Virus record (IMG/VR): IMGVR_UViG_2974716774_000001
Span: 1 to 61,736 of that record
Source: Jacunavirus JC01
Taxonomy: Duplodnaviria; Heunggongvirae; Uroviricota; Caudoviricetes; Casjensviridae
Length of the DNA stretch: 61,736 nt
Strand: one strand, 5' to 3'
The notes beneath the pieces are model-generated. The model was not told where the DNA came from, made no database searches, and saw nothing but the letters and a program-made list of their open reading frames with translations. The translations under genes were made by a program, and so were the position numbers. Positions 21,144 to 40,763 of this stretch are shown piece after piece. How positions within the stretch are numbered: position 1 is the first letter of the stretch; each line of letters begins with the position of its first letter.

Positions 21144-21382
21144 TCAACTACTACGATGGAATGCGGGAGCAGGTCAGTCTGCTCCTTTCCGAAGGCCACC
21201 CACACGCCCGGCGCTACCCACTGGCGACGCTGTGGCTGGAAGCACAAATCGTAATGCGCCGTCATAACCAAAGATTTGTCACCGAATCCCTGCTGATGCA
21301 GGGCTGTATCGGAACGATAATGAATGGGAAGAAAGGCTCTAAGCATTATCAGGACATGATAAGGAAACTTAGCGATGGCTAA
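20688..21382 (+). CDS. Tail assembly chaperone frameshift product (gpGT-like, predicted -1 frameshift near 21134-21140)
   Basis: The -1 frame is open from the slippery run GGGAAAAAA through 21382 and ends just inside the tape measure gene. Confidence 0.45.
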
Positions 21383-24300: not shown

Positions 24301-25883
24301 CTAAAGCCAAAATGCTGCAGACGGATCTCAGCGCGGCGATGGGCTTCCAGTTCACCGAAGACCCGGGCGGCGGGATCAGCAAGCGTGACCGTGAGGTGCA
24401 GGCGCTGACCAAAGAGTTTGAAAAACTGCAGAAGTCCGCCGACAAAGCGAAGAAGTCGGCCAAAGAAGCACTGATGCGTAAAAACCTGCCGGGCCGCCTG
24501 GCGCTGGTCGACGAAGAGTTCGCACCGCAGCTCGCCAGGGCGAAAGCGCTCGGCGGCGATGAAGGGGCCAAGCTGACCAAACAGCTGCAGGGCATCATCG
24601 CTATCCGTAAGCAGGCCGAGACCGACGAGTACAACGCGTCACAGCGTAGTTCGTCCGGCATCGACAAGCGAGCACGCGCGTTGGAGAACCTGACGCAGAA
24701 ATACAAAGAGCTGAAAGACTCTATCCAGCTCAAAGAGGTGCAGCAGGATCCGACGTCTTCGCTGGCTGACCGCACCGCGGCTGCTGTGCAGAAAGCTAAC
24801 ACCGAGATGGATAAATATATCCGTCAGGCTAATAAGCTCGGTGGCGCGGAAGGCAAAGCACTCTCCGACCAGTTTACTGCCCTGAAGACGGTTAACGAGC
24901 AGTACATCACCCAGAAGATGCAGCTGGAGGAAGTGGAGCGCCTGGAGAACAAGGTCAACAATCTGCTGGCCATCCGTAAGTCGCGGATTGAGGAAATCAA
25001 CGCCAAACGTGAAGCGGGCGTTATCAACGAAGACCAGCAGGTCGCAGGCGTCAATCAGGTCAATCAGGAAACGCAGGGGCCGCTTAATGCCGCTCTGGGC
25101 CAGCTGCAAAGCGCGGGGTCACAGGCGCAAAGCATCATGGGGCCGGAGGCATGGGCGCAGCTCCAGGCGAACATCGCTGCGGCAAAAGCCAGTATGCTTG
25201 ACCTGACAGGTACTTTCACCACGATGGACTCTACCGTCGTTAAAGGTGTTCTCGGCGGCTTTGAAGCGGCGATGGACTCTATCTATGACAGCATGGTACA
25301 GCTCATCCGCGGCACGCAGTCTCTCAGTGACGCGTTTTCGAACCTGGGCGTGGCAGTGGCCAAGTTCTTCGCCGACTTCCTGCGTCAAATCGCAATGGCC
25401 ATCCTTCAGCAGATGGTGCTCAATGCGCTTGCGGGAATGGGAGGCGGTATCGGCGCGGCGGCGCAGGCAGCGGGCGGCGTGGCCAAAGGTGCGGCCAAGC
25501 ACAACGGTGGTATCATCGGCAGCTCGACGACCGGAGGTATGCAGACACGTCAGATGCAGACGTCGTGGTTTGCCAACGCTCCGCGCTTCCACACCGGCGG
25601 GCTGCCCGGCCTGAAGTCAGACGAGGTACCAGCCATTCTGCAGAAAGGCGAGCAGGTGCTGTCCAAAGATGACCCGAACAACATCCTGAACCAGCAGCGG
25701 TCTACGTCAGGCGGTGCTGCGTCGCCGCAGATGAATCGCTTCGTGCTGGTGGACGACCGCACCAAGATCCCCGAGGCCATGAACAGCCAGGAAGGGGAGC
25801 AGGTATTCGTGCAGTTCCTTCAGCGCAACGCCGCGACAGTCCGGCAGATTGCGTCACGTAAAACGAGCGGGAGAAACGGATAA
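21375..25883 (+). CDS. Tail tape measure protein
   Basis: 1502-aa ORF, N-terminal coiled-coil-like Ala/Gln/Arg-rich region, central hydrophobic Gly/Ala-rich region; located after the chaperone pair. Confidence 0.85.
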   Translation: MANNSSRDVELNIRARDYSQKTLKQVTDAISDMAKAQDAQRLAAERGEVTAKELEASYRKLESAGQALLKLNSLVEVYKRQTAALEAQQVKLEQTVEKQKELQAAYDGAEKVTKRQEAALARANRAVEKATQGLSDQQARVSRAAAELDKYGISTNELARSQQTIVANVGRVNAVLERQDNIIQRVPEAVRKYNQAWDEAIATNNRLDTARLEKYNRAWDEAIAINNRMDAAAKLTQQRLEEQAYAIDKVITGLRRQADEAIAASRGYQTLGRVVAATNLSTGGRLATDLQAIVTPAQAARSTLGGLEKQVDSLSREIEAGGKNIEGAAQKLKDLQAAQQAAIGMARLIDQFRAQTTAVRTARAEFQAARADVMQLAERMRAAQADTEGLGREMQAAQQRLNAATQALRTTGAAARQTQAALRSAGVDTRTLGTESDRLRTTAQRTTTAVDGLAGAVRRSGEAARDGAKAFSFFTDSGRTTLSATQRLKGEILALTTTYIGFQGAINLAGGAVDAFKTRQQALIKISQVVGKDQNRLNAEWEYMEGLANRLGVKIEDVAQGYTSFAVAAKATGLSLQQTKYVFESITKTGRVFHLSADDMQGVFRAMQQMLSKGQVYAEELTGQLGERLPAAVALFAKGMDMTTQELLKAMQNGEISSQAVINFARANAKAIDAEIETASKGVDAMEARAQNAMFNFKLAMADSGFIEAYVRMLERLTEFLNSPDGAEAAKKFGDAFSKAADAIIWCVDNIDILINALTVFAGLKAVQYVAGLVQGLRKLAPLFAQIGKIGDGILSFFSKFAARLATGTGAVKGLGIALGGLVRAIPYVGWALLAYDIGAIFYEQSQTFAKAVDEVIRDFKNLGNQLIALAETPVAALRDLAYAIVRPITTLFSTSITAIANWIADVVSLIPGVGEDLAKWTRDVAKELTKQNRDMFQNVSGIWDDVNDKWAKMNDDITKKYSQTMSEVVRQTLAAKAKMLQTDLSAAMGFQFTEDPGGGISKRDREVQALTKEFEKLQKSADKAKKSAKEALMRKNLPGRLALVDEEFAPQLARAKALGGDEGAKLTKQLQGIIAIRKQAETDEYNASQRSSSGIDKRARALENLTQKYKELKDSIQLKEVQQDPTSSLADRTAAAVQKANTEMDKYIRQANKLGGAEGKALSDQFTALKTVNEQYITQKMQLEEVERLENKVNNLLAIRKSRIEEINAKREAGVINEDQQVAGVNQVNQETQGPLNAALGQLQSAGSQAQSIMGPEAWAQLQANIAAAKASMLDLTGTFTTMDSTVVKGVLGGFEAAMDSIYDSMVQLIRGTQSLSDAFSNLGVAVAKFFADFLRQIAMAILQQMVLNALAGMGGGIGAAAQAAGGVAKGAAKHNGGIIGSSTTGGMQTRQMQTSWFANAPRFHTGGLPGLKSDEVPAILQKGEQVLSKDDPNNILNQQRSTSGGAASPQMNRFVLVDDRTKIPEAMNSQEGEQVFVQFLQRNAATVRQIASRKTSGRNG

Positions 25884-28650: not shown

Positions 28651-28868
28651 CAGATGAACCGCGTATCTACATGCGCCATGCGCGCGCTATGAACATCTGC
28701 GGCCCGGGCGTGGAGCGCATCGCCGAGCGCATGGGGGTCAACCTGATGGACTTCCTGGAGAACGGGTATCCGTGCGCACTGGCCGAGAAGTCCGCTAACC
28801 CGCTGCTGCGCAAGGCCGCGGCAATGGCACGCGAAGAGTGGGAGGCCGCACATGGGAAAGGCCAGTAA
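28647..28868 (+). CDS. Hypothetical protein
   Basis: 73-aa ORF overlapping neighbours by 4 and 17 nt in the tail tip operon. Confidence 0.35.
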   Translation: MTDEPRIYMRHARAMNICGPGVERIAERMGVNLMDFLENGYPCALAEKSANPLLRKAAAMAREEWEAAHGKGQ

Positions 28869-31800
28869 GGTTACAGTCGGCTACAAATATTATATGGGCC
28901 TGCACATGTCGATCTGCCGCGGGCCGGTCGACGAGCTGTGCGAGATTACCGTGGGCGATCGGCAGGCCTGGCAGGGCTCTGTCACCGGCAACACGCAATT
29001 CAGCATCAACAAAAAGAACCTTTTCGGCGGCACCAAAGCGGAAGGTGGCATCGACGGCACGCTGGACGTGATGATGGGCGGCGCTACCCAAACTATGTCG
29101 AGCAAGCTGCGCGCGATGCTGCAGGGCGATCAGCCGGAGTTTCGCGGCCTGATGACGACCTTCTTCGACGGCATGGTCTGCGCCATGTCGCCGTACCCGA
29201 AGGCCTGGAAGTTCCGCGTTCGTCGCATCCTGTCCGGCTGGGATGGCCCGGTGTGGTATCCGCAGAAGGCAACCATTAACCTGACCGGCTATTACGACGA
29301 TGGCTCCAGTCGCCAGATTAAGGCGATGAACCCGGTTCACATCATTTACGAAGCGCTGACTAACCGCGCGTGGGGGCTGGGCCGCGACCGCTCACTCTTC
29401 CTCGATGACGCGTGGCGTAAAGCTGCCGACGACATCTACGACGAAGGCTTCGGTCTGTGTATCCGCTGGGGGCGGCAGGACACGCTGATGTCATTCGTGC
29501 AGACGATTATCGACCACATCGGCTGCGCGGTATACGTGGACAAGTTCACCGGTAAATTCAAGATAAAGCTCATCCGCAACGACTATGACGCGGATTCTCT
29601 GCCCATAGTGGATATGGACTCCGGCCTGCTGTCTATCGACGAGGCGACCAACGCGTCGACGTATAACCTCATCAACGAAGTGATCGTCAACGCGCACAAC
29701 CCTGTCACCAACAAAGACTTTCAGGCCCGTCAGCACAACCTGGCGCTCATCCAGACGCAGGGCGCGCTGAACAGTGACACCCGCGACTACCCGGGCATCC
29801 CGACGCCGGAGCTGGCCATCCGCATCGCCCAGCGTGACCTGAAGGCGGCCTCGACCAACGTCCGGCGCTTCACCGTGACCGCCGACCGTCGGTTGTGGCG
29901 CCTGCAGCCCGGCGATGTCTTCAAGCTGCGTGACCCGCAAAGCCGCGGTATCGAGACTGTGGTCGTGCGCGTTGGCAAGGTGGAAGAGACTAACCAGACT
30001 GACGGCAGTATCAAAATCACTGCAGTGCAGGACGTCTTTGGCGTTGAGCTGAATACCTTCGCTGACGTTCAGCCGCCATCCCACGTCGAGCCGACTTTCG
30101 ACCCGCAGCTGGCCCGTCGTCTGGTTTACGAGTACACCTACGCCGAGCTGGCCCGCCTGCTGCCCACCGGTGAGTTCGAGGCTATCAAACCGGCGGAAGG
30201 CTTTGTCCACGCCCATGCGGAGAAGCCGACGGCCATGTCTGCCGGTGCTGACCTCGCGGTGCGCCCGGAGGGCCAGGCTAACTTCGTCGTTAACGGCACC
30301 ACCGACTTCACGCCACTGGCCGAGCTGCAGAACCAGATTGGCTACCTCGACACGCAGCTGCAGTATTACCGCGAGATTGACTTCGACGATGACGAAGAGG
30401 TGTATGTCGGCATGTCGCTGCTGATCGGCGATGGCCAGAAGAACGAAATAGTGCGTCTCGATGCGCTTGACCGCACCACGAAGACGATGACTATCGCGCG
30501 TGGCTGCTGGGATACTATCCCGCAGCGGCATTTCGGCGGCGCGCTTATCTGGGCTATCGAGGATAACGGCGGCACCGACGCGACGAAGTACCTGTCCGGC
30601 GAGACCGTCGACGTCAAGATCCTCCCGTTCACCCTGCGCGGCGGCAGCTACCCTATCGACGAAGCGCCGATTGACAGCGTGCTCATGCGCCATCGCTTCT
30701 TCCGGCCGTACGCGCCCGGGCTGGTGGAGGTCGAGACAATCGCCCGTGGCAGCAAAGCGCCGTGGTACGTCTCTTTCGACCTGCGGGCTGACGTCGGCTC
30801 AAACGAGGTGCCGGACTTCGCGCTCATCACCTGGGCTCACCGCGATCGCCCGGTGCAGCAGGATAAGCTGATTGACCACATGCAGACCAGCATCGGGCCG
30901 GAACCGGGCACGACGTATCGCCTGCGTGTCTTCAACGCCACTGGCGCGCTGGTACGCACCGAAACCGGCATCACCGGCACGCAGTTCGCCTATACCTACC
31001 AGATGGCCGCTGATGACACGCAGGTGGAGCTGGAAGCCACAGAGTCGACCTTCGGCACCATCTTCCTCGATGCGCAGCGTGACGGCGTGGATTCGTGGAT
31101 GTACTACACGCTGACGTTCACCGTTCACAAGAAGCCGCCGCAAAACGGCGAGGTGGCGCTGCTCTCGATGCAGACGACCGCCGATGACACCGACATGACC
31201 TCCAACCCGGATAACGACCTCTCCGGCGCGCAGGTGTCGAGTATGCAGATGAACGCGACGCAGGATGACTCGGATATCGCGACAGGCGACGACAACACCG
31301 GCGGCCAGGTGGCGCTGATGAGCGAGAACGCCACGCAGACCACGAAGATCCTGCCGACCATCGACTTCTACCTGTACGAAGCGCCCTACCTGACGCTGGC
31401 GCGGGAAGGCCGCGATTTGACGCATTCCCAGATGCTCGGCTTCGTTGCGCGACCGTCTGACCGTGCTACCGATGGCTACGACTTCTGTGACCGCCTGCAG
31501 GGCGAAGAGGCCTGGCACAATAACGGCGCCGCGCCGTGGACTCCGTGGGGCGTGCTGAAGGGCTTCATGGCGCAGCTGACCAACGAGTTTGAAGTCGACC
31601 TGACCAGCGATACTGATGGCGTGCCGATCGGCTCCGTCCAGCAGGGCGACGTGCTGCTCATCGACAACGAGCTGATGGTCGTGCAGTCTGTCGACGGAAA
31701 ACGCTTCACCGTTGGCCGCGGTGCCGTGGATACCGTACCGGCCATCCACTACGCGAAAGTCGTGGTATGGCTGTTTGACCGCGCGCACGCTGCTGCCGAC

Positions 31801-32670
31801 AGGCTTTACGGCGACAACGACGTGGCCAACGCCGTCATCAGGCCACACAGCTTCGCCGAGGCTATCCGCCCTGAGGATATGCCGTTTAAGCAGCTGCAGA
31901 TGCAGTACCGGCCAATCCGGCCATACCCGCCGGGCATGTTGCTGTTTAACGGCCAGCACTGGTTCAAGCGCATCAACGCACTGGCAGACGAGAACTACGA
32001 GAAGCCGCAGGGCAAGCCGGTCATCGTGACCTGGGCGCACCGTAACCGCATCTGGCAGGACGACGAAGCGTACGACCACTACGCCACGGGCATCCCGCCG
32101 GAGCCGGGTGTGGAGTACCGTATCTGGATTGGGTACCGGTACATCGAGAATCGCCAGGAAGTGAAGGTCACTCTCGATACGCTGGTGACGTCGGATGCCG
32201 GTATCACGTTCACCAAAGAGATGGTAGAGCGCTGGGGCGAGAAAGCTGGCCGCTTCCTACAGTCTCCCGGCTTTGTCGGCGTAGAGGTGGCAGTCAACGC
32301 AGTGCGGGATGGCGTGTTTAACTGGCAGGGCTACGGCGCGCAGATGCTGCTGCCGTCTTACCCGCTGAGCCCGGGCGAGAAGCCTGGCGGCGGCACGGTT
32401 CCGCCAGACCCGGAATACCCGCAGCCCGGCGACCCGACGCCTAACCCGAACGACCCGGATCCAAACCCGAACCCGGGCGACGGCAATGGCGACACCGACC
32501 CGCTGCCAGACCCGGGCAACCCAGACCCGAATCCGGATCCGGAAGTGCCGGACACTGACCCACCGGCGCCAGAACCGGAGCCGGAGCCAGACCCGGAGAA
32601 CGTATTCGGCTGGTCGAACAACTGGGATCACGGCTGGGCATCGAAACTGCCTGACCAGAACGGAGAATAA
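28852..32670 (+). CDS. Tail tip central fibre / host specificity protein (lambda gpJ-like)
   Basis: 1272-aa ORF; internal region ELAIRIAQRDL...RRLWRLQPGDVF resembles the gpJ pattern; C-terminal Pro/Asp/Asn-rich low-complexity linker. Confidence 0.65.
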   Translation: MGKASKVTVGYKYYMGLHMSICRGPVDELCEITVGDRQAWQGSVTGNTQFSINKKNLFGGTKAEGGIDGTLDVMMGGATQTMSSKLRAMLQGDQPEFRGLMTTFFDGMVCAMSPYPKAWKFRVRRILSGWDGPVWYPQKATINLTGYYDDGSSRQIKAMNPVHIIYEALTNRAWGLGRDRSLFLDDAWRKAADDIYDEGFGLCIRWGRQDTLMSFVQTIIDHIGCAVYVDKFTGKFKIKLIRNDYDADSLPIVDMDSGLLSIDEATNASTYNLINEVIVNAHNPVTNKDFQARQHNLALIQTQGALNSDTRDYPGIPTPELAIRIAQRDLKAASTNVRRFTVTADRRLWRLQPGDVFKLRDPQSRGIETVVVRVGKVEETNQTDGSIKITAVQDVFGVELNTFADVQPPSHVEPTFDPQLARRLVYEYTYAELARLLPTGEFEAIKPAEGFVHAHAEKPTAMSAGADLAVRPEGQANFVVNGTTDFTPLAELQNQIGYLDTQLQYYREIDFDDDEEVYVGMSLLIGDGQKNEIVRLDALDRTTKTMTIARGCWDTIPQRHFGGALIWAIEDNGGTDATKYLSGETVDVKILPFTLRGGSYPIDEAPIDSVLMRHRFFRPYAPGLVEVETIARGSKAPWYVSFDLRADVGSNEVPDFALITWAHRDRPVQQDKLIDHMQTSIGPEPGTTYRLRVFNATGALVRTETGITGTQFAYTYQMAADDTQVELEATESTFGTIFLDAQRDGVDSWMYYTLTFTVHKKPPQNGEVALLSMQTTADDTDMTSNPDNDLSGAQVSSMQMNATQDDSDIATGDDNTGGQVALMSENATQTTKILPTIDFYLYEAPYLTLAREGRDLTHSQMLGFVARPSDRATDGYDFCDRLQGEEAWHNNGAAPWTPWGVLKGFMAQLTNEFEVDLTSDTDGVPIGSVQQGDVLLIDNELMVVQSVDGKRFTVGRGAVDTVPAIHYAKVVVWLFDRAHAAADRLYGDNDVANAVIRPHSFAEAIRPEDMPFKQLQMQYRPIRPYPPGMLLFNGQHWFKRINALADENYEKPQGKPVIVTWAHRNRIWQDDEAYDHYATGIPPEPGVEYRIWIGYRYIENRQEVKVTLDTLVTSDAGITFTKEMVERWGEKAGRFLQSPGFVGVEVAVNAVRDGVFNWQGYGAQMLLPSYPLSPGEKPGGGTVPPDPEYPQPGDPTPNPNDPDPNPNPGDGNGDTDPLPDPGNPDPNPDPEVPDTDPPAPEPEPEPDPENVFGWSNNWDHGWASKLPDQNGE

Positions 32671-32672
32671 TC

Positions 32673-33410
32673 ATGCCATTAAAAAATGCCCCGAGTCAGG
32701 GGCTTAACTACGGATGGGTGCGCGGCGAGGACTACTGGGGCGGCCCGGTCAACGACGACCTTATCTTCCTCGATACGCTGCTGCACCCTGTCGTCAGGTC
32801 AATGTCTTTCAGCTCGCCACCAGCCGATGCCGTGCCGGGCGACCGCTTCATCGTGGCGGCCAACCCGACAGGCCCGTGGGTGAACCACGCGGGGGATCTG
32901 GCGGCGCTGGTGGAAGGCACATGGGTTTTCTATAAACCGAAGACCGGCTGGCGTCTGCGCCTGCTCTCCACGAATCAGTTCGTCTGGTACAACGGGGATA
33001 ACTGGCAGGATGAGGTGACAGGGGATGACCCGGTTAACCCCGGGCCGGATCCAACGGTCAAGCCGACAGCGTACGACATCGCGGTGACAGTGAGCGACGC
33101 CATGTACCCGGACGAGGCGCTGGTGCATATGCCTCTGCTCGATGCGATGATGCTCCCGGCCAACATGGCAGACAGCTCGCTCGACATGCTACAGTCGTCT
33201 CAGGTTTACGCGCAGATGCGAGTGCAGAGGAACGGCACCAACGTGGGCACCATTACCGTTGAGGCAGGCTCGTACAATGCCACCTTCGCCACGGCCGGTG
33301 GAAACGCCGTTCCCTTCGCCAAAGGGGATCGCCTGACTATCCGTGGCCCGGCAGTCGCGGTGGACGCATTCAAGAATTTTGGATTCGTCATCCGCCTGAA
33401 ATTCGTGTGA
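32673..33410 (+). CDS. Hypothetical tail-associated protein
   Basis: 245-aa ORF with RBS GGAG directly after the gpJ-like gene. Confidence 0.45.
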   Translation: MPLKNAPSQGLNYGWVRGEDYWGGPVNDDLIFLDTLLHPVVRSMSFSSPPADAVPGDRFIVAANPTGPWVNHAGDLAALVEGTWVFYKPKTGWRLRLLSTNQFVWYNGDNWQDEVTGDDPVNPGPDPTVKPTAYDIAVTVSDAMYPDEALVHMPLLDAMMLPANMADSSLDMLQSSQVYAQMRVQRNGTNVGTITVEAGSYNATFATAGGNAVPFAKGDRLTIRGPAVAVDAFKNFGFVIRLKFV

Positions 33411-33417
33411 GGAAAGC

Positions 33418-34371
33418 ATGGCCACCTTTATCGACGGCTTTGAACAGTTTGACGGCGACCGCACTGCGGCGCTGATGCGCATGGCAGGCTACTCCGTCGG
33501 CGGTGTCACCCTGGCGGCGGGCAGGAAGGGCAACAGCCGCTCGGTCAGCTGCTACCGCGCCACGCTCTCCCGGGCATGGTCGATGGTCGACAATCTCCTG
33601 ACGCTGGGCTTCGCGGTCAAATTCGACCAGCGTGGCCCGCTGCTGTCCGTGGGATCCGGCGCGAACCAGCTGTACCTGTGGGTAGACCCGGAGACCGGGC
33701 TGGTTAACCTCGGCACTGGCCTGGCGGCCGGTACGCCGGGATACATCAACCCGCTGAAAAACCGCTGGTACTACTTCGAGCTGCAGCTGGACAAGTCCAC
33801 CAGCAAAGCGACGCTGTTCGTGAATGGCAAACAGGACATCTCGATACCGCTGCCATCCTTCATCACCGGCAACCTGACCGTGCTGCTCAACCCGTTTCAG
33901 CTCTTCGTGGCGCCGAAGGAGGACTACGGCACGCGGCTCTACGACGACCTGTACCTCAACGACGGCCCGCGGCTCGGCCCGATTCAGGTCACGTCGCGTT
34001 TCGCCACGGCGGATGGCAGCAAGACCGGCTGGAGTTTTGACGGTGCTGCTACGCGCTGGCAGGCGGTGTCGCCGCCGATTAACGAGCTGGACAAGTTTAT
34101 CTACACGGCGATCGACGGGAACGAGAACAGCTTCATCTCCGGCACCTCGCTGCCGGACAATAACCCTATCCGGTACCTGCAGCTGGTAACGCTCTTCAGG
34201 AAGGCCACGTCTGACCCGATGAGCCTCGACTTTAACATCGGCAGCCAGGTGAAACGTGAGTCAAACATCAGCCGCGACTGGACGTTCCGATATACGATGA
34301 TGAGCGCGTCGGGGTATGATGCCGACAGCATTAAGGCCGCCGAGTTCGGCGTCAAACTGATTCTGGGGTAA
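33418..34371 (+). CDS. Paralog 1 of a five-member tandem family (putative lectin-like tail fibre/decoration protein)
   Basis: 317 aa; N-terminal M-x-x-F-I-D-G-F-E; internal RWYYFELQL...LFVNGK; RBS GAGGAAAG. Confidence 0.55.
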   Translation: MATFIDGFEQFDGDRTAALMRMAGYSVGGVTLAAGRKGNSRSVSCYRATLSRAWSMVDNLLTLGFAVKFDQRGPLLSVGSGANQLYLWVDPETGLVNLGTGLAAGTPGYINPLKNRWYYFELQLDKSTSKATLFVNGKQDISIPLPSFITGNLTVLLNPFQLFVAPKEDYGTRLYDDLYLNDGPRLGPIQVTSRFATADGSKTGWSFDGAATRWQAVSPPINELDKFIYTAIDGNENSFISGTSLPDNNPIRYLQLVTLFRKATSDPMSLDFNIGSQVKRESNISRDWTFRYTMMSASGYDADSIKAAEFGVKLILG

Positions 34372-34375
34372 ACAC

Positions 34376-35353
34376 ATGCTGATTTTTATGGATGGCTTCG
34401 AGCAGCTGAGAGACACGGTGGCCTCCGGCTCGCCTTCCCCGCTGCTGACAGTTCTCAACGCCTCCGGCTACACCGCCTCAGGCAATATCACCGTTGACCC
34501 AGCGCGCGTTCAGACGTCGCGCTGCCTGACGCTGGTGGACACGGCGACGCTGAAGCGCACCTTCACCTCGACGCAGGGCAAGGTCGTTATCGGCTTTGCG
34601 TACAAAGGCGGCACCCGCACGGATATCACGAATATCACGAACGTCGGCGCGCTGCAGTGGGATGCGACCACGGGCAAGCTGAAGATGGCCAATGGCACCG
34701 GCACGGCCACGGTGCTGCTGGACACGTGGTATTACTACGAGATTGTGATCGACAAGGCGAACCAGCTACTGCAGGTCTTCGTGAATAACGGAAAAGACAT
34801 CGAGGTCGGGCTACCGGCCAGCGCGCAGAACCTGTCGACATTTGAGTGCCTGTGGGCTGGCGCCGCGGCCGATAACAAAGGCGTTGATGACCTGTACTTC
34901 GTCGACAGCGCCACCGGCCGCTACGTTGACCGCATGGGGCCGATAGCCATTACCGCCCGCCTGCCCACGCAGGACGTCGACAAAGAATGGTCGCCTTCCA
35001 GCGGCACCGACCACTGGGATCTCGTCAATAACATGCCGCCGGTCGACGACCAGTATGTCCAGTCAAACACCTCCGGCGCGACTGACACGTACCTCTCGAA
35101 CGTCGGTCTGCCTCAGGGCGCCGCGATCCTGGCCGTCGGCATCACGGCGCTGAATAAGAAGTCCGATATCGACGCCCGGCAGCTGGGGCTGGTCATCGGG
35201 CGCAAGGGCCAGACGCAGAAGGAAAAGGTGGACACTCAGCTCTCCACCAGCCCAAAATACAGTTACGCCGTCTTCGAGACCGCGCCGGACAACACGGCGT
35301 GGACGGATGAAAGCGTGACCTCAGTACCGTTCGGCGTCGTCGTGCGCCCATAA
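34376..35353 (+). CDS. Paralog 2 of the tandem family
   Basis: 325 aa; N-terminal MLIFMDGFEQ; TWYYYEIVID...VFVNNGK; YVQSNTSGATD motif. Confidence 0.55.
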   Translation: MLIFMDGFEQLRDTVASGSPSPLLTVLNASGYTASGNITVDPARVQTSRCLTLVDTATLKRTFTSTQGKVVIGFAYKGGTRTDITNITNVGALQWDATTGKLKMANGTGTATVLLDTWYYYEIVIDKANQLLQVFVNNGKDIEVGLPASAQNLSTFECLWAGAAADNKGVDDLYFVDSATGRYVDRMGPIAITARLPTQDVDKEWSPSSGTDHWDLVNNMPPVDDQYVQSNTSGATDTYLSNVGLPQGAAILAVGITALNKKSDIDARQLGLVIGRKGQTQKEKVDTQLSTSPKYSYAVFETAPDNTAWTDESVTSVPFGVVVRP

Positions 35354-35366
35354 CAGGAGAAACACA

Positions 35367-36392
35367 ATGTCTCTTAAATTTCAGGACGGCTTCGACCACT
35401 ACGCCGCAACCGGAGTTAAGGGCGCGACGCTTCAGCCGTATCTCACCGATAACGGCTACGATGTGCGTAACGCCTCCGACACCACGTTCGCCGTGGTTGA
35501 TGGTCGACGTGCTGGCGCGCGGGCGCTGCAGTTCACCGTGGCGCGAAACTCAACGACGAACGCGTCGCTGTCGTGGGGCTTCACCTATCAGGGCGACTAC
35601 GCCTGCTTCGGCTTTGCGATGAAGGCCAGCGGCTCCCGTATGCGCATCTGCCGCATCGAGAACGTCATCGACGTCGACTGGGATGCCACTACCGGCAAAA
35701 TCAGCGTGGCGGGCCAGCTGGGCGTTAACCCGCTCATCCTGAACGACTGGTACTACTTCGAGATTGAATGCGACTTCACCGCGAATAACGTTAAGATCTG
35801 GGCGAACAACGAACTGCAGCTGACCGTGGATATCTCGTCCGTCGCGAAGCCCGCGAAAGCGACTATCGTGTGGGGCCAGGTAGGCACCGCGCCGGATGCT
35901 GGCGTGCAGATCCTGGATGACTTCTACGCGCTCGATGCCGGTGGCACCTCCAATACCGCACGCCTGTCGCCGATTGAAGTCGTGACCCGTGCGCCGTCAG
36001 CCGACATCACGACCCAGTGGGAGATCGTGAACGCTACGGCAGGCACGCCGCACTACCAGATCGCCGGGCAGCTGGAGCCGAACAAAGCGGGCGCGCCGTA
36101 CCTGCAGTCGAACACCGCTGGCGCCACTGACCTGTTCCGCTCCAACACCGCGCTGCCGACAGACAACACGGTCTTTGCGGTCTCCGTCATCGCGTACGCT
36201 CGCAAGGGCGACGTGGACGACCGCAAACTCGGTCTGCTGATCCAGCCTGAGGGCGGCTCTGAGTCCGAGACGCAGGTGCCGCTGACGGAGGCCTTCAAGT
36301 ATTACCAGCAGACCTTCGATAAAACGCCGAGCGGCGGCGCGTGGAATAAGAACATTGTAGAGTCGCTGCAGTTCGGCATCCGCACGCGCTAA
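35367..36392 (+). CDS. Paralog 3 of the tandem family
   Basis: 341 aa; N-terminal MSLKFQDGFDHYA; DWYYFEIECD...IWANN; YLQSNTAGATD motif; RBS AGGAGAAA. Confidence 0.55.
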   Translation: MSLKFQDGFDHYAATGVKGATLQPYLTDNGYDVRNASDTTFAVVDGRRAGARALQFTVARNSTTNASLSWGFTYQGDYACFGFAMKASGSRMRICRIENVIDVDWDATTGKISVAGQLGVNPLILNDWYYFEIECDFTANNVKIWANNELQLTVDISSVAKPAKATIVWGQVGTAPDAGVQILDDFYALDAGGTSNTARLSPIEVVTRAPSADITTQWEIVNATAGTPHYQIAGQLEPNKAGAPYLQSNTAGATDLFRSNTALPTDNTVFAVSVIAYARKGDVDDRKLGLLIQPEGGSESETQVPLTEAFKYYQQTFDKTPSGGAWNKNIVESLQFGIRTR

Positions 36393-36401
36393 GGAGCCAG
36401 C

Positions 36402-37559
36402 ATGGCCATTCTTTTCGTTGAAGGCTTTACCGGCGTGCCGCGCGTCGCAAACGGCGGGTGGGCAAACACCCATCCGCTGTACGCGCTGGGCTGGACGCTG
36501 AACGCCAAATACAACGGCTCCAGCGCCGTATCTGCGTCCGATGGCAACGTGGTGGCCAGCGTAGAGGCAGACCCGACGTTCGCCACGCGCAGTCAGGTGT
36601 CGCTGCAGAAAACGTCGGCGAATGGTTCGCTGTCGCTGGTGCAGCAGATGACGCAGGCTTTCGACACCTCCGGGTATCAGAAGTACGTCATCGGCGGGAT
36701 GTTCCTGGTGAGCCAGACGGACACCTCAGCGGCAGGCGGCTACGTGGTTATTTCGGGCGCTGTGCAGTTCCCAAGCTCCCAGGGCAGCTTCCCTACGGCT
36801 GACATCCTTGCGCAGTTCTACGTGCCGAATAACGGGGCTGACGGCACCGCGTCTGCGACCATTGTCAGTCAGTCGCTCGTCACGCCGCTGCTGAAGAAGG
36901 ACAAGTGGACGCACTTCGAGGTTTTCGTCGAACAGGACACCGACCGCATTCGCGCCTACCTCGATGGCACGCTGGTGCTGGACTACACCTACACCGGCAC
37001 CTTCGGCTCGGCAACCGGCGGACTCAGCCTGACGGCGTTGCGCTCCACGGCACAGACGGGCGTCTTCACCACGAAATTCTCTAACGTCTACATGCTGGGC
37101 TGCGACGACGTTCATACTGGCCCTCTCGGCCCGGGTGCCCGCGTGCTGGAAGTGGCGCCAGCGGCTGACTTCGCCGTGACGTGGGGCCGTCCTGCCAGCT
37201 TTGCGAGCAACGCCGCGGTGCTGCAGCAGGCCTTCAACGCCGCCGCGCCGTCGTTTCTGACCACGGCCGATACCACGCCAGACCTGTACAAAGGCCCGGA
37301 CGCAGTGGCGGCTAACGCGGCTACGGTGTACGGCGTGGCCATGAAAGTGAACGCGATGACAATGGCCGAGGGCAACCACGCGATCGCGGCCGCCGCGCAG
37401 TACGGCACCAGCAGCTCCGTGGGGCCGCGCAGCTACAACCTGCAGCTGGGTACGCTCAAGCCGCTGGTGCTGGACATCTCGAAGAACCCGGCAACGGCCG
37501 AGCGCTGGACACCTTCGGAAATCACCGCGGCCGGTATCGGCATCAAGATGCTTAACTAA
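36402..37559 (+). CDS. Paralog 4 of the tandem family (more divergent)
   Basis: 385 aa; N-terminal MAILFVEGFTG; KWTHFEVFVEQD...YLDG; RBS context TAAGGAGCCAGCATGG shared with paralog 5. Confidence 0.5.
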   Translation: MAILFVEGFTGVPRVANGGWANTHPLYALGWTLNAKYNGSSAVSASDGNVVASVEADPTFATRSQVSLQKTSANGSLSLVQQMTQAFDTSGYQKYVIGGMFLVSQTDTSAAGGYVVISGAVQFPSSQGSFPTADILAQFYVPNNGADGTASATIVSQSLVTPLLKKDKWTHFEVFVEQDTDRIRAYLDGTLVLDYTYTGTFGSATGGLSLTALRSTAQTGVFTTKFSNVYMLGCDDVHTGPLGPGARVLEVAPAADFAVTWGRPASFASNAAVLQQAFNAAAPSFLTTADTTPDLYKGPDAVAANAATVYGVAMKVNAMTMAEGNHAIAAAAQYGTSSSVGPRSYNLQLGTLKPLVLDISKNPATAERWTPSEITAAGIGIKMLN

Positions 37560-37568
37560 GGAGCCAGC

Positions 37569-38645
37569 ATGGGCGTCACCCTGATGGAAAACTTTGACTG
37601 TGACGTGGGCGCGCTGGTGGAGCGGGGCTGGGTTATGCCCGCCACCACGACGAACGTCTTCACAGCCATTGAGCAGTTCACTGAGAACGGCATCACCCGA
37701 AACTGCTTCCGCCACAGCATGTCGATGAGCTATTACGGCTTCGGCGCGTTCTACCCGTTCCGCATCCCGCTGCCCGCATCGAAAGAGTTTTTCGTGTCAT
37801 TCCGGATGCGCTACCCGAACGCCTCCCGTATCAACTCGTCAACCGCATGGAGCGTCTCTACTAACAGTGGGCGTTCAGCCGCGAACCTGGTGCTGGAGGT
37901 CTACCCGGCCGATGCTTATTCCAGCGTCTACCTGAAGAACAACGGACAGGTGGCGGGGTCTCCCAGCTACCGGTTCAACCATCAGACGTGGGCGACCATT
38001 GAGATGCAGCGCAAAGCGGACGGCTCGACGAAGGTGTGGGTGGACGACATGCTGCTCTACAGCGCAAACGCAAACACCACGGCCTCGGCGGACAACTACC
38101 TGTACATGGGCGTGGTCAATGCCGGGCAGGGCAGCACGATTGATGGATATCAGATAGCCGACGTCGTTGTCATTGACCCGACCACGGCAGGCCTGCAGAA
38201 TCGACCGGGATCCAGTGAGCGCGTATTGTCGCTGGCCGCAAGTGCCGATGTGCTGGCACAATGGACGGCGATCGGCGGCGCCACCGAGCCGCACAACCAG
38301 CTGATGAAAAACTATCCGGCCACGGTGGATACGACGAAAGTGCTGCAGGGCGACACCGCAGGGCAGCGCGAGCAATACAGCCTCGCGGATTTCCCGGCAG
38401 GCTTTGGCACGCAGCTGCTGACGCTCGGCTTTGAGCAGCGCGCGAACAACCCTGGCAGCTCGCCGCACGTCTTCACTACCGAAGTGGATCTGGGTGCCGG
38501 GCCTGTCGGTGTCGCAGATAACACCGTGGCACCCGGCGCAACGTACAGCTATCGCCCGGTGTACGTGGCCTCAAAGCCCGGCGGCGGTACATGGACAGCG
38601 GCGGACATCCCGGCGCTGAAGATAGGCTTCTCCGTTAAGTCATAA
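37569..38645 (+). CDS. Paralog 5 of the tandem family (more divergent)
   Basis: 358 aa; N-terminal MGVTLMENFD; QTWATIEMQRK...VWVDD; same RBS context as paralog 4. Confidence 0.5.
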   Translation: MGVTLMENFDCDVGALVERGWVMPATTTNVFTAIEQFTENGITRNCFRHSMSMSYYGFGAFYPFRIPLPASKEFFVSFRMRYPNASRINSSTAWSVSTNSGRSAANLVLEVYPADAYSSVYLKNNGQVAGSPSYRFNHQTWATIEMQRKADGSTKVWVDDMLLYSANANTTASADNYLYMGVVNAGQGSTIDGYQIADVVVIDPTTAGLQNRPGSSERVLSLAASADVLAQWTAIGGATEPHNQLMKNYPATVDTTKVLQGDTAGQREQYSLADFPAGFGTQLLTLGFEQRANNPGSSPHVFTTEVDLGAGPVGVADNTVAPGATYSYRPVYVASKPGGGTWTAADIPALKIGFSVKS

Positions 38646-38654
38646 GGCGCATAT

Positions 38655-40763
38655 ATGGCCGAAGCTATTAAGATGGCGGGCTACCGACTGGTAAGCCTGT
38701 CCTATAACGGCAAAACGCCGGACAAGCTGGGCGCGGCCACCGCAGGTACGCTATCCATCATCTACGTTGAGGCCGCGATAAACCGCGTCGCCTCTTTTCG
38801 TCTTACCGCCCTGAGCGCAGCTACCCGATCCCCTGACAGAATTGGTGCCGTGTCTGCGGCCACCACGGCCATGATTTACGTCGAAGCGCCGGTCAACCGC
38901 ATGGCCACGTATCGCCTGGTCGGCCTGAGTGCCACGACTCGCCAGCCGGACAAGCTGGCAGTGGCCACTGCAGGTCTCGTGGCGTTCCTGATCCGCCCGC
39001 CTTTCGGCAGCGCGCAGGCCGGGCGCTTCGGCTTCATCATCGAGCAGAAAGAGGTCGGGCCTCCGGCGTACGTGAAAGAGGCACAGCTGCTCGTTACCGC
39101 CGCGCGGCAGGTGCCGCCGGTAAGCCAGGTCATCTCGTACGAGAGCGTGCGCCAGACAGTGATGCTGACGTCCATGCTCTACGGCGCGATGCCGTTCCCG
39201 CTCTCCTACACTCGCGCGAAGCAGCTGCACCAGCTCGTGCTGCAGGCGAAGCCGATCAGCACTATCTCGTACGAGTCCGTGAAGCAGGTGCGCAACCTGG
39301 CGGCGACGCAGTTCAACTACATCATTCCGGGAGACGTCTGGTCGAAGAGCAGCGCCGCCCAGACCGTGATGCTGGTCTGTCAGTCGCTCACCATTCCGTA
39401 TACGCCGACGTCCGGCGAGTACCTCAGGCAGAACCTGATGCTGGTGGCGCTGCAAAGCGCGCCAATGCCCATCCGTATTTCCCGCGTTACCGTGCGGCAG
39501 GAGAGCGTGCTGGTGGCGCTGAAGCGTCCGCAGGAGAGACTGCCACGGTCGATTACCCGCGTGCCGCTGGTGACGACGCTGGCTTCGCAGAGACGCATCG
39601 ATCCGATGCCGCGCTCCGCCGAATTTGTGGGCGCCGTGCTTTCGCAGGCGTCAGTGCCCACGGTAATGCCGGAGCCGCACGGCCCTGACCACGTAGCGCA
39701 GCTGTATTCGCTGGCGCTGGTTCCGACCGTTATGCCCGCAGTCCAGGGCGTGCAGCAGGTTAAACAGGAGCGCGTGCTGGTGTCGCAGGCCCGCCCGGCG
39801 CCGCTACCGATTTCCCGCGAGGCTGTACCTCAGGTTACGCTGCTTGCCTCGCAGGGCACGTCATACCCGGCACCGGGATCCATGTCGAGCCTGCAGGTGA
39901 AACAGGAGCGCACGCTGGCGCTGGTGCAGTCGTCCTATCCGCCGCCGACCCGCATCTCCTATACCGCCGTGCCTCAGGTGGCCATTGCGTTCATGACCCA
40001 CCCTCCAGCGTCTTACTACCCCGACCCGGAAGTGGTGTACGAGCGCTCGCGCTATGACTTCGTGTCGCAGTTCGTCGAGCTGGTGACGATGGGTCGACCG
40101 TTGGCGCTGCCGCTGTCCTATGTGCCGGTGCCGCAGCTGGCCATGCTCACCGCGCAGCACGCGGACTACCTGTCGCCGGAAGAGATGGCTCGCTCCGGTG
40201 CCTTCACCTGGCAGGTCATCGAGAACGTCGCGACCACAGCGGACTACCCTTCCGCCGACGCACCGGCCAGCCGCGTTATCGTGCCGCAGCTCATCGAGCA
40301 CGTTGCGGTGACGGCCGACTACCCTGATGCCCATCTGCCGGTCAATTACGCGATTGTGACGCAGGTCGTGGAGCATACGGCCACGGTTGAGACTTATCCC
40401 GATCCGGGCACCCTTCAGTCAGTGCAGAATGTGTGGCAGGTATCCGAGCAGCTGGCGGTCGAAACTGATTACCCGGACGCTGGTGCGCTACACTCACCTG
40501 TGATAGCTTTGCAGCTTGTTGAGCAGGTCACTTCGTCGGCTAACTACCCGGACAAAGATTTCCCGCAGTCTTTCGTCCGGCTGGCTCAGGCGACACAGCA
40601 GGTGGCCTTCAAAGCAGCTTACCCTAACAAGGACGTTCCACAGTCCTCGGCTCGGGTAAATCAGGTGCTCCAGCATGTTGCCCGGCGCGACCTGACGATG
40701 TATCAGCTACCGGTACCGCCGCGGCGCCACAGAGTGCGGGTCGTGTGCCGATTCGTGTACTGA
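38655..40763 (+). CDS. Repeat-rich protein (putative tail fibre shaft)
   Basis: 702-aa ORF with three types of internal tandem peptide repeats (N-terminal about 38-aa units, central ISYESV-type units, C-terminal about 27-aa units ending in DYPD/TYPD/NYPD). Confidence 0.55.
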   Translation: MAEAIKMAGYRLVSLSYNGKTPDKLGAATAGTLSIIYVEAAINRVASFRLTALSAATRSPDRIGAVSAATTAMIYVEAPVNRMATYRLVGLSATTRQPDKLAVATAGLVAFLIRPPFGSAQAGRFGFIIEQKEVGPPAYVKEAQLLVTAARQVPPVSQVISYESVRQTVMLTSMLYGAMPFPLSYTRAKQLHQLVLQAKPISTISYESVKQVRNLAATQFNYIIPGDVWSKSSAAQTVMLVCQSLTIPYTPTSGEYLRQNLMLVALQSAPMPIRISRVTVRQESVLVALKRPQERLPRSITRVPLVTTLASQRRIDPMPRSAEFVGAVLSQASVPTVMPEPHGPDHVAQLYSLALVPTVMPAVQGVQQVKQERVLVSQARPAPLPISREAVPQVTLLASQGTSYPAPGSMSSLQVKQERTLALVQSSYPPPTRISYTAVPQVAIAFMTHPPASYYPDPEVVYERSRYDFVSQFVELVTMGRPLALPLSYVPVPQLAMLTAQHADYLSPEEMARSGAFTWQVIENVATTADYPSADAPASRVIVPQLIEHVAVTADYPDAHLPVNYAIVTQVVEHTATVETYPDPGTLQSVQNVWQVSEQLAVETDYPDAGALHSPVIALQLVEQVTSSANYPDKDFPQSFVRLAQATQQVAFKAAYPNKDVPQSSARVNQVLQHVARRDLTMYQLPVPPRRHRVRVVCRFVY

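Follow-up and report, generated by a model that had tools for sequence, protein, structure and literature searches.

An acidic, proline-rich disordered tract as a candidate leash for a DUF2793 fibre at the tail-tip hub of Cronobacter phage JC01

The window analysed here is the whole 61,736-nucleotide stretch of Jacunavirus JC01 DNA (IMG/VR record IMGVR_UViG_2974716774_000001), and our subject is the C-terminal end of its tail-tip hub gene, where an acidic tract rich in Pro, Asp, Asn and Gly precedes a short tryptophan motif. The tract is predicted to be disordered, its length and negative charge are conserved among long homologs, and the motif that follows it co-occurs strictly with a DUF2793 fibre gene immediately downstream. 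On balance we read the tract as a leash that joins the hub to a peptide for docking the fibre, a reading that we consider somewhat probable and within which the disordered spacer is much firmer than the docking. The elements on which the argument turns, with lengths in amino acids (aa), are the following.

28852..32670, + strand: tail-tip hub gene, 1272 aa, ortholog of the Chi 'minor tail protein' BH2P/CHI_30; gpJ-like, Phage-tail_3 family
32023..32361, + strand: last folded domain of the hub, second FN3-like copy (aa 1058-1170), ending '..AVRDGVFNWQGY..LPSYP'
32374..32598, + strand: acidic Pro/Asp/Asn/Gly-rich tract, predicted disordered (aa 1175-1249, 75 aa); proposed tether
32599..32667, + strand: C-terminal tail (aa 1250-1272, 23 residues, NVFGWSNNWDHGWASKLPDQNGE); proposed docking peptide
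32611-32637, + strand: motif core within the tail, W1254-x3-W1258-x3-W1262
32673..33410, + strand: DUF2793 'tail fiber protein', 245 aa (Pfam PF10983, E=7.6e-25; phrog_7049); proposed docking partner
32673-33047, + strand: N-terminal attachment domain of the DUF2793 protein (~aa 1-125)

The acidic tract and its conservation

Cronobacter phage JC01 is a Chi-related siphophage with a non-contractile 219-nm tail (PMC9759504). The database entry for its hub protein (100% identical) is annotated as 'hypothetical protein'. In our searches the hub matched Pfam PF13550 (Phage-tail_3; E=7.5e-10, 39.4 bits against a cutoff of 23), phrog_6284 over its full length, the Chi protein BH2P in PDB entry 8vjh_A across residues 3-1268 (E=0) and the 735-aa JBD30 baseplate hub 8rk3_o across JC01 residues 4-759 (E=8e-133). 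Judged by these sequence matches, the open reading frame (ORF) at 28852-32670 is an ortholog of the Chi tail-tip hub BH2P, and the matches to PF13550, 8vjh_A and 8rk3_o agree with the initial annotation of this DNA, which had placed the tract near the C-terminus of a gpJ-like protein. We found no mention of the tract in the YSD1 virion paper, the Thai Chi-like phage paper, the Peru-2 preprint or the JC01 genome paper.

A Pro/Asp/Asn-rich low-complexity linker had been noted at 32380-32600, and the 65-aa peptide quoted for it is present exactly and in frame (aa 1185-1249, nucleotides 32404-32598), within a tract that as a whole runs from 32374 to 32598. Proline makes up 37% of this tract against 5% of the rest of the hub, followed by D (17%), G (12%), N (9%) and E (9%); 5 of the 75 residues are hydrophobic, a single one is basic and the net charge is -19. 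Alternating (P-X)n runs cover 40 of the 75 residues, and the Shannon entropy over 40 aa falls below 3.0 nowhere else in the hub (minimum of 2.31 in the tract, median of 3.76 for the protein). The GC content of the tract is 70.6% as against 58.5% for the window, and its low complexity is compositional, made up of CCG, GAC, GGC and AAC codons with no tandem array. Tandem Repeats Finder reported two imperfect copies of a 21-nucleotide unit and two of an 18-nucleotide unit (scores 58), and with just two imperfect copies per unit a slippage-prone DNA tandem-repeat array was ruled out.

AlphaFold2 gave the tract a predicted local distance difference test score (pLDDT) of 26-33, as against ~80 for the flanking folded domain. 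In deposited structures, 769 of 1296 residues are modelled for the Chi chain 8vjh_A and 727 of 735 for the JBD30 hub chain (Foldseek), and the C-terminal region of BH2P/YSD1_29 has been described as 'too flexible to be analyzed' (PMC12264135). Provided that the modelled stretch of 769 residues is N-terminal, the Chi cryo-electron microscopy model would end about where the first low-complexity linker of the hub starts (linker 1, described below), and the part left out of the model would take in the tract. With its low complexity, few hydrophobic residues, charge and low predicted order, the tract is by prediction an intrinsically disordered acidic Pro-rich linker, and the flexible spacer proposed in the initial annotation gains support from both the pLDDT and the apparent position of the equivalent Chi region outside the model.

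A disorder prediction and a comparison of linker length across homologs had both been suggested as checks on that spacer, and the second was run at the protein level, where alone relatives could be reached; a megablast search of the region against GenBank phages gave no match. The protein search returned ~75 full-length hub relatives of 36-74% identity with a common layout, in which a last domain ending '..VRDG..NWQGY..LPSYP' is followed by a G/P/D/N/T/E-rich tract and the terminal motif. Absence or a frameshift of the linker had been named as what would overturn it; an in-frame equivalent is present in every full-length homolog examined, so that the tract is neither a chance feature nor a sequencing error. 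In the 69 long homologs that could be scored, which span 36-100% identity, domain anchor and motif lie 81-120 aa apart (median 89, mean 90.4, standard deviation 6.9, coefficient of variation (CV) 7.6%), a variation comparable to or tighter than that of linker 1 (CV 0.10-0.11). Net charge is negative in all 69 (-5 to -26), and the proline content is 16-42%. The sequence itself drifts, with a mean pairwise identity of 0.30 for the tract (61% gaps), 0.36 for the preceding domain, 0.47 for the hub core and 0.48 for the terminal motif, and composition varies between clades, in some of which the N-terminal half is Gly-rich (GGGGSGGG). By position, P1230 is invariant and P1221, P1224 and P1233 are at least 90% conserved, which suggests that the C-terminal third of the tract (…DPEVPDTDPP…) is more than filler. 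That length and negative charge are held while sequence drifts indicates that this is no generic linker.

These observations bear directly on the possibility that the tract is a neutral low-complexity expansion, a slippage-derived filler whose sole requirement is not to disrupt folding. The weak 18- and 21-nucleotide direct repeats, the fast drift with its 61% gaps and the differing composition of clades would all be expected of such a filler, but it would have to have kept its length within 81-120 aa over 36-100% identity, with a CV of 7.6% beside the 0.10-0.11 of linker 1, its net charge always negative and its prolines in place in the C-terminal third, and loss of the tract was seen in no long homolog. 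We consider this explanation most improbable.

It is also very unlikely that the three Pro-rich tracts of a hub trimer form a semi-rigid rod of the polyproline-II type as part of the thin fibre seen by electron microscopy (EM). In favour of such a shaft are the alternating (P-X)n runs over 40 of 75 residues, the positional conservation of P1221, P1224, P1230 and P1233, the conserved length, the immunolabelling of YSD1_29/BH2P on the fibre (PMC12264135) and the presence of one fibre, not three, in Chi-like phages (PMC6631126). Against it, three chains each with a net charge of -19 would repel, the GGGGSGGG N-terminal half of other clades is therefore floppy, a pLDDT of ~30 gives no hint of order, and G-X-Y periodicity is lacking (Gly at 2-4 of 25 positions per phase). 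The Chi fibre is ~200 nm long, whereas ~90 residues would reach at most ~28 nm. Two related rods were rejected on the tract sequence: a collagen-like triple helix, on the same want of G-X-Y periodicity (Gly at 4, 2 and 3 of the 25 positions in the three phases), and a TonB-like charge-segregated (X-Pro)n rod, on the single basic residue and the lack of a basic half.

An exhaustive search with the last domain, tract and motif against 1.84 billion cluster representatives matched 34 clusters. Those inspected were all hub homologs or C-terminal ORFs of split hubs, which rules out a portable tract-plus-motif module carried on unrelated proteins. The split hubs are metagenomic (P0167-P0185, ~780-820 aa), and their C-terminal ORF begins 'MANSDYK…', corresponding to about aa 480 of JC01, and retains the linker, module, domain, tract and motif, the last with variants such as GHWDTNWDRHWDAY. 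In one related locus (L029, IMGVR_UViG_2595698694_000001) the hub is apparently frameshifted or split into 683 and 584 aa, and in one database protein (P0060) the C-terminus is out of frame; both disruptions are likely to be sequencing or assembly errors rather than biology.

The terminal tryptophan motif and the DUF2793 gene

What follows the tract had been called a short C-terminal domain, a description that does not hold, as the tract is followed by no more than 23 residues, a tail too short for a domain, which carries a conserved Trp motif. The tail has the consensus G-W-S-x-x-W-D-H-G-W-A-x-x-L-P, with the family form G-W-[SG]-x-x-[WY]-D-H-[GD]-W-A-x-x-L-P, and is the best conserved segment in the C-terminal third of the hub. 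Among 52 sequences, W1254 is present in all, W1262 in 51 and W, Y or F at position 1258 in all; the counts at further positions are D 45/52, H 41/52, A 44/52, L 40/52 and P 47/52.

A counterpart was found in the short hubs of JBD30, Yuavirus, Yonseivirus and BcepNazgul, where a pattern G-Φ-G-x-x-Φ-G-x-x-Φ-G comes directly after the homologous last domain. The tails concerned are GLGFRLGEELGG (JBD30 type), GLGLDLGDLLGG (L032), GWGLNWGNDFGG (BcepNazgul) and GFGLDFGNNFGG (L085), to all of which the G-W-S-N-N-W-D-H-G-W-A of JC01 aligns gap-free in a fused alignment with Φ1, Φ2 and Φ3 in register, and GLGNNLGNYLGG (Churro, Yuavirus) and GYGNSYGFTYG (Klebsiella KPN N98, Yonseivirus), whose pattern was matched by eye. 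The glycine before Φ1 is at least 90% conserved across all motif types. The JC01 hub thus ends in the form G-Φ-[GS]-x-x-Φ-x-x-x-Φ-[GA], aligned with the C-terminus of JBD30 gp53, and differs from a rigidly mounted end in having ~90 low-complexity residues before the motif (as do the 69 long homologs) versus ~5 in hubs of the JBD30 type. In Xanthomonas phage Xoo-sp2 (L090), the 1399-aa hub ends …EGYLAHQWGLTANLPSGHPYKSSPPTI and a DUF2793 gene is next (E=2e-34); there is a likeness between its 'H-x-W-G…L-P' and the D-H-G-W-A-x-x-L-P that closes the Chi-type motif, so that the docking element may be spread more widely, and in more divergent form, than the motif as we define it.

The DUF2793 gene of JC01 starts 2 nucleotides past the hub stop (TAA/ATG at 32668-32675, GAATAATCATGCC), and this gap, together with overlaps of 1-4 nucleotides in relatives, suggests translational coupling of the two genes. 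The fibre profile matches the R4C fibre 8gtc_S (E=2.4e-6), with which the N-terminal domain superposes at a root-mean-square deviation of 2.2 over 89 columns (Foldseek). According to Harvey et al., the gene for a DUF2793 protein always comes right after that of the central fibre, and the N-terminus of the protein is likely to attach it to the particle.

We parsed hub C-termini and the next gene in 80 related viral loci, found with an alignment as query (a search with a single protein as query gave 3 loci), and in seven annotated phage loci. Among 48 distinct C-termini, the motif occurred with a downstream DUF2793 gene in 32, without one in none, and 12 had neither (Fisher p=2.6e-8); the remaining 4, with DUF2793 and no match to the motif regex, comprise 3 variants that the regex missed and 1 frameshifted hub. 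In the loci parsed, then, motif-bearing hubs all precede DUF2793 genes, and hubs without such a tail have none. The chemistry of the peptide also follows that of the fibre: aromatic peptides pair with fibre arms YGW..WGG, WWGW..GWG, TWGF..TWG and TYGW..GW, and aliphatic peptides with LING..HY or MVNG..HY, which would be suggestive of a contact between the two.

Hubs that end instead in LL..E.GD.L..E.GD.LL.E precede fibres with a different N-terminus, MANQKLSQLPAA…. What appears to be a second, unrelated hub-fibre pairing was observed in five loci (L081, L083, L084, L054 and L091 RcJoli), whose hubs end 'LLRTETGDELVTEAGDYLLIE' or 'LLLEGDEDGNTIDIGGGTDFLLIEED' and whose non-DUF2793 fibres start 'MANQKLSQLPAA.ALTG.E..PVVQGGQT'.

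Proposed docking, its alternatives and the mounting of the fibre

In the reading that we favour, the tether would consist of ~75 low-complexity residues, or ~90 from the last folded domain to the motif, and as the hub is a trimer there would be three tethers per virion, each ending in a G-W-S-x-x-W-D-H-G-W-A-x-x-L-P peptide. This peptide would most likely insert into the N-terminal attachment domain of the DUF2793 trimer encoded 2 nucleotides downstream, mirroring the JBD30 hub C-terminus inside its DUF2793 receptor-binding trimer. The alternating X-Pro units and ~19 negative charges should keep the leash extended and non-sticky, with an estimated reach of ~10 nm if coiled and at most ~25-28 nm if fully stretched.

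Docking was modelled with two single-chain fusions in AlphaFold2 (monomer ptm model, 3 recycles), using paired alignments of 22-24 sequences in which fibre and hub segments come from the same contigs. The first joined three copies of DUF2793(1-135) to the last hub domain, tract and motif, and the second three copies of DUF2793(1-125) to a 32-aa hub peptide. Run without a positive control, neither placed the peptide: in the first the domains reached a pLDDT of ~80 and the tract and motif ~30, with the motif docked on neither the fibre trimer nor the hub domain, and in the second the fibre domains were predicted at 90-95 (predicted template modelling score 0.76) with the peptide at 31-40 and undocked. 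The approach is a weak one for a question of this kind (one chain, monomer weights, a shallow alignment), and its results lend no support to the leash-and-docking reading, against which several other points weigh. The fibre profile matches the JBD30 receptor-binding protein 8rk3_a (gp54) weakly (E=0.13), as does Pfam DUF2793 the JBD30-type fibre (E=0.0027). The motif-DUF2793 statistics ignore kinship, although motif-bearing lineages number perhaps 7-8 and those lacking it at least 8, and the aromatic/aliphatic co-variation could reflect shared ancestry, possibly one switch. In EM the fibre of Chi-like phages is long and single (PMC6631126), which is not obviously the picture expected of three tethered trimers, and the DUF2793 protein of JC01 and Chi is known here from its gene alone. 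We infer physical docking, the reach of the leash and any benefit for flagellum binding, and our confidence in the docking step was lowered because neither fusion reproduced it.

The failure of the motif to dock on the DUF2793 trimer could favour a plain linker with an intramolecular latch, in which the C-terminal element folds onto its own hub domains or a neighbouring subunit, for instance to stabilise or gate the tip, without a part for any other protein. Phage tail modules are commonly joined by low-complexity Pro/Gly linkers, the composition fits, and such a latch is close to the view taken in the initial annotation. The motif was, however, equally undocked on the last hub domain in the first fusion (pLDDT ~30, with hub residues 1-1057 outside the model), a 23-residue tail is too short for a domain, and the homologous JBD30 C-terminus is reported on the fibre trimer, not on the hub. 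A latch would leave unexplained both the restriction of the motif to hubs followed by a DUF2793 gene and the way in which the chemistry of the peptide tracks the fibre N-terminus, and we regard it as unlikely.

It would seem quite unlikely, too, that the peptide is a host-binding tip, a Trp element on an acidic leash that, in the manner of an adhesin or membrane anchor on a tether, contacts the outer-membrane interface, lipopolysaccharide, flagellin or the TolC complex. The W-x3-W-x3-W spacing is reminiscent of Trp motifs that are interfacial, membrane-active or carbohydrate-binding, and lambda gpJ binds its receptor through its C-terminus. Chi requires flagella and AcrABZ-TolC (PMC10399903), and antibodies to YSD1_29 (= BH2P) label the fibre and block infection (PMC12264135). 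The motif is nonetheless near-invariant across phages of Cronobacter, Salmonella, Providencia and Proteus and across diverse metagenomic clades, so that a conserved phage partner fits better than variable host surfaces; its aliphatic version in JBD30 is structurally assigned to fibre docking, and its strict co-occurrence with DUF2793 would go unexplained.

The long and short hubs suggest how a leash could have come about, and two further features of the JC01 hub are needed here.

30823..31137, + strand: first FN3-like 'domain VII' copy (aa 658-762), aligning with the end of the JBD30 hub
31132..31356, + strand: linker 1, the first low-complexity linker (aa 761-835), Q/T/D/S-rich

The first copy is the domain that terminates the short JBD30-type hubs and precedes the motif there, and linker 1 sits where those hubs terminate. 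Between linker 1 and the second FN3-like copy lies a ~220-aa folded module. The second copy, the last folded domain (AlphaFold2 pLDDT ~70-85; Foldseek matches to 8vjh_A, 8rk3_b and FN3 domains), is an internal duplicate of the first (aa 658-762 versus 1058-1170, 29% identity, E=1e-12). As the first copy corresponds to the pre-motif domain of short hubs, Chi-like hubs carry an arm inserted before the ancestral, putative docking motif, and relative to JBD30-type and Yonseivirus hubs this arm comprises linker 1, the ~220-aa module, the duplicated domain and the tract. Where the motif comes directly after the last domain, as in JBD30-type, Yuavirus, Yonseivirus and BcepNazgul hubs, the fibre would be seated rigidly, whereas with the arm of Chi-like hubs the fibre trimers would hang on long leashes. 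In the Yonseivirus phages PIN1 and PIN2 a more compact fibre replaces the long flexible fibre of flagellotropic phages (PMC12264135), and the Yonseivirus hub of KPN N98 is without arm and tether; the two fit flexible mounting in Chi-like phages, though other reasons are possible. The same can be said of the PDB, which holds no entry for a Chi-type DUF2793 protein and in which the untethered ones of JBD30 and R4C are resolved, a pattern that fits flexible mounting and may have other reasons.

Two sequence signatures were observed in this region. Linker 1 contains three 'VA..S.Q..A' repeats (GEVALLSMQTTADD, AQVSSMQMNATQDD and GQVALMSENATQTT), of which the triple 'VA......Q' pattern is kept in the family consensus, and both FN3-like copies carry a 'TWAHR[DN]R…GPEPG…Y R…RDG..[SN]W' signature.

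A more speculative extension, which we regard as doubtful, is that the whole C-terminal half of the hub (linker 1, module, duplicated domain, tract and Trp peptide) forms the proximal part of the single flexible Chi-type fibre. There would be three arms of ~50 nm, each terminated by a plug formed of the peptide, whose three Φ residues, spaced four apart, would lie on the three-fold axis of a DUF2793 trimer. Were the peptide to adopt a polyproline/polyglycine-II helix, with a turn every 3 residues, the directions of positions i, i+4 and i+8 would differ by 120 degrees, so that a single peptide, though asymmetric, could contact each of the three identical subunits. Leashes of this kind would allow the trimers that bind the receptor to wrap around a rotating flagellum and to grip it anew. 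The Chi fibre has been assigned either to the hub YSD1_29/BH2P (PMC12264135) or to the small DUF2793 protein CHI_31 (PMC10399903), and such an arrangement, if true, would reconcile the two assignments.

Even as a leash with a docking peptide only, the favoured reading would connect, in a concrete and testable way, the two proteins to which the name of Chi tail fibre has alternately been given, and it bears on how Chi-like flagellotropic phages attach their fibre and on what that fibre is made of. Across siphophages of Gram-negative hosts it suggests a rule whereby a hub tail of the form G-Φ-G-x-x-Φ-G-x-x-Φ-G predicts a DUF2793 fibre, which could be of use in annotation and for engineering receptor-binding modules that can be swapped. 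Should the docking prove wrong, the tract is an ordinary disordered linker of little wider interest.

Genomic context and known systems

By position, past the tape measure, a distal tail protein, a BH1P-like protein and two small proteins, the hub lies inside a tail-tip module of the RcGTA/Chi type, and the order of genes in the tail module matches that of SLP-22, FSL SP-030 and Chi. The features around the hub, and the alternative-frame ORFs of at least 50 aa that cross the tract, are as follows.

21375-25883: tape measure (TMP_3, Pfam), upstream in the tail module
Between the tape measure and the BH1P-like gene: tail protein, 566 aa
27591-28409: BH1P-like protein, Phage_BR0599/Gp84_N (Pfam)
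Between the BH1P-like gene and the hub: two small ORFs
32257..32631, - strand: alternative-frame ORF, 124 aa, crossing the tract
32358..32621, - strand: alternative-frame ORF, 87 aa, crossing the tract
32441..32674, - strand: alternative-frame ORF, 77 aa, crossing the tract
32486..32707, + strand: alternative-frame ORF, 73 aa, crossing the tract
33418-38645: five consecutive phrog_2448 paralogs after the DUF2793 gene (317, 325, 341, 385 and 358 aa), function not assigned
38655-40763: 702-aa phrog_7226 protein

The initial annotation had attributed spurious ORFs in other frames to repetitive DNA, and it was right about the ORFs but not about the repetition: four cross the tract, where stop codons are depleted, and the repeats amount to two copies each of the 21- and 18-nucleotide units. 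Stop codons in the alternative frames number 3 per 225 nucleotides in the tract against a gene mean of 10.9, a depletion due to the GC-rich CCN, GAY, GGN and AAY codon content. Real genes in these frames (32257..32707) were rejected, the ORFs being composition artefacts inside a gene conserved at the protein level.

The phrog_2448 paralogs share related N-termini (M..F.DGFE..) and may be additional components of the fibre or the tip; at the corresponding place Chi carries four genes (CHI_32-35, 320-409 aa), compared by position alone. They were set aside as alternative docking partners, as their N-termini are unrelated to DUF2793. The phrog_7226 protein has many short internal repeats (…ISYESV.Q…, …[AT]DYPD[AP]…), and its counterpart by position in Chi is CHI_36 (709 aa).

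The closest structural precedent for docking is Pseudomonas phage JBD30, in which the C-terminus of the hub gp53 is reported to dock in the centre of the helical bundle of the gp54 trimer (PDB 8rk3; PMC11445458), gp54 being a receptor-binding protein that was deposited as a DUF2793 protein. Like JC01, JBD30 has a homologous hub, a DUF2793 gene immediately downstream and the hub end motif in register. The two differ in that the JBD30 hub has 735 aa with the motif ~5 residues past the last domain, whereas JC01 has ~510 extra residues before it, in that the motif is aliphatic (L/L/L) in JBD30 and aromatic (W/W/W) in JC01, and in that docking is assigned from the structure in JBD30 and proposed by analogy in JC01. 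In Salmonella phage Chi, BH2P/CHI_30 (8vjh_A; equated with YSD1_29 in PMC12264135) is an ortholog with 47-49% identity and the same architecture, including a P/D/E/G-rich tract and the motif NVPGWSLSWDHGWAMTLPD, and the next gene, CHI_31, encodes a 246-aa DUF2793 'tail fiber protein'. Its tract differs in sequence, being richer in G, T and E, and it has a longer tail after the motif, FRYVPPADEEPE.

A third comparison is with roseophage R4C, where, much as in the scheme proposed for JC01, three DUF2793 trimers (nine copies) are carried on the C-terminal part of the trimeric megatron (8gtc; PMC7296036, PMC10276861), and it is the R4C fibre 8gtc_S that the N-terminal domain of the JC01 fibre matches. 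RcGTA has mobile fibres and a fibre-binding domain held by a linker of 20 residues (PMC7296036, PMC10276861). Unlike JC01, with its terminal peptide on a ~90-residue disordered tract, the megatron has a folded fibre-binding domain of ~320 residues, and in RcGTA the fibre gene lies elsewhere in the genome.

TonB and the g3p of filamentous phages are functional analogues without homology, in which a low-complexity X-Pro or Gly-rich spacer, its length defined, allows the terminal binding module to contact a partner some way off. The acidic (EP) and basic (KP) stretches of TonB occupy separate halves, whereas the JC01 tract is uniformly acidic, and the g3p linkers are rich in Gly and Ser and join folded domains, whereas the JC01 tract ends in a peptide. 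Set against these systems, the JC01 arrangement is a variant of a known fibre attachment scheme in a published phage, and the leash itself is fairly ordinary.

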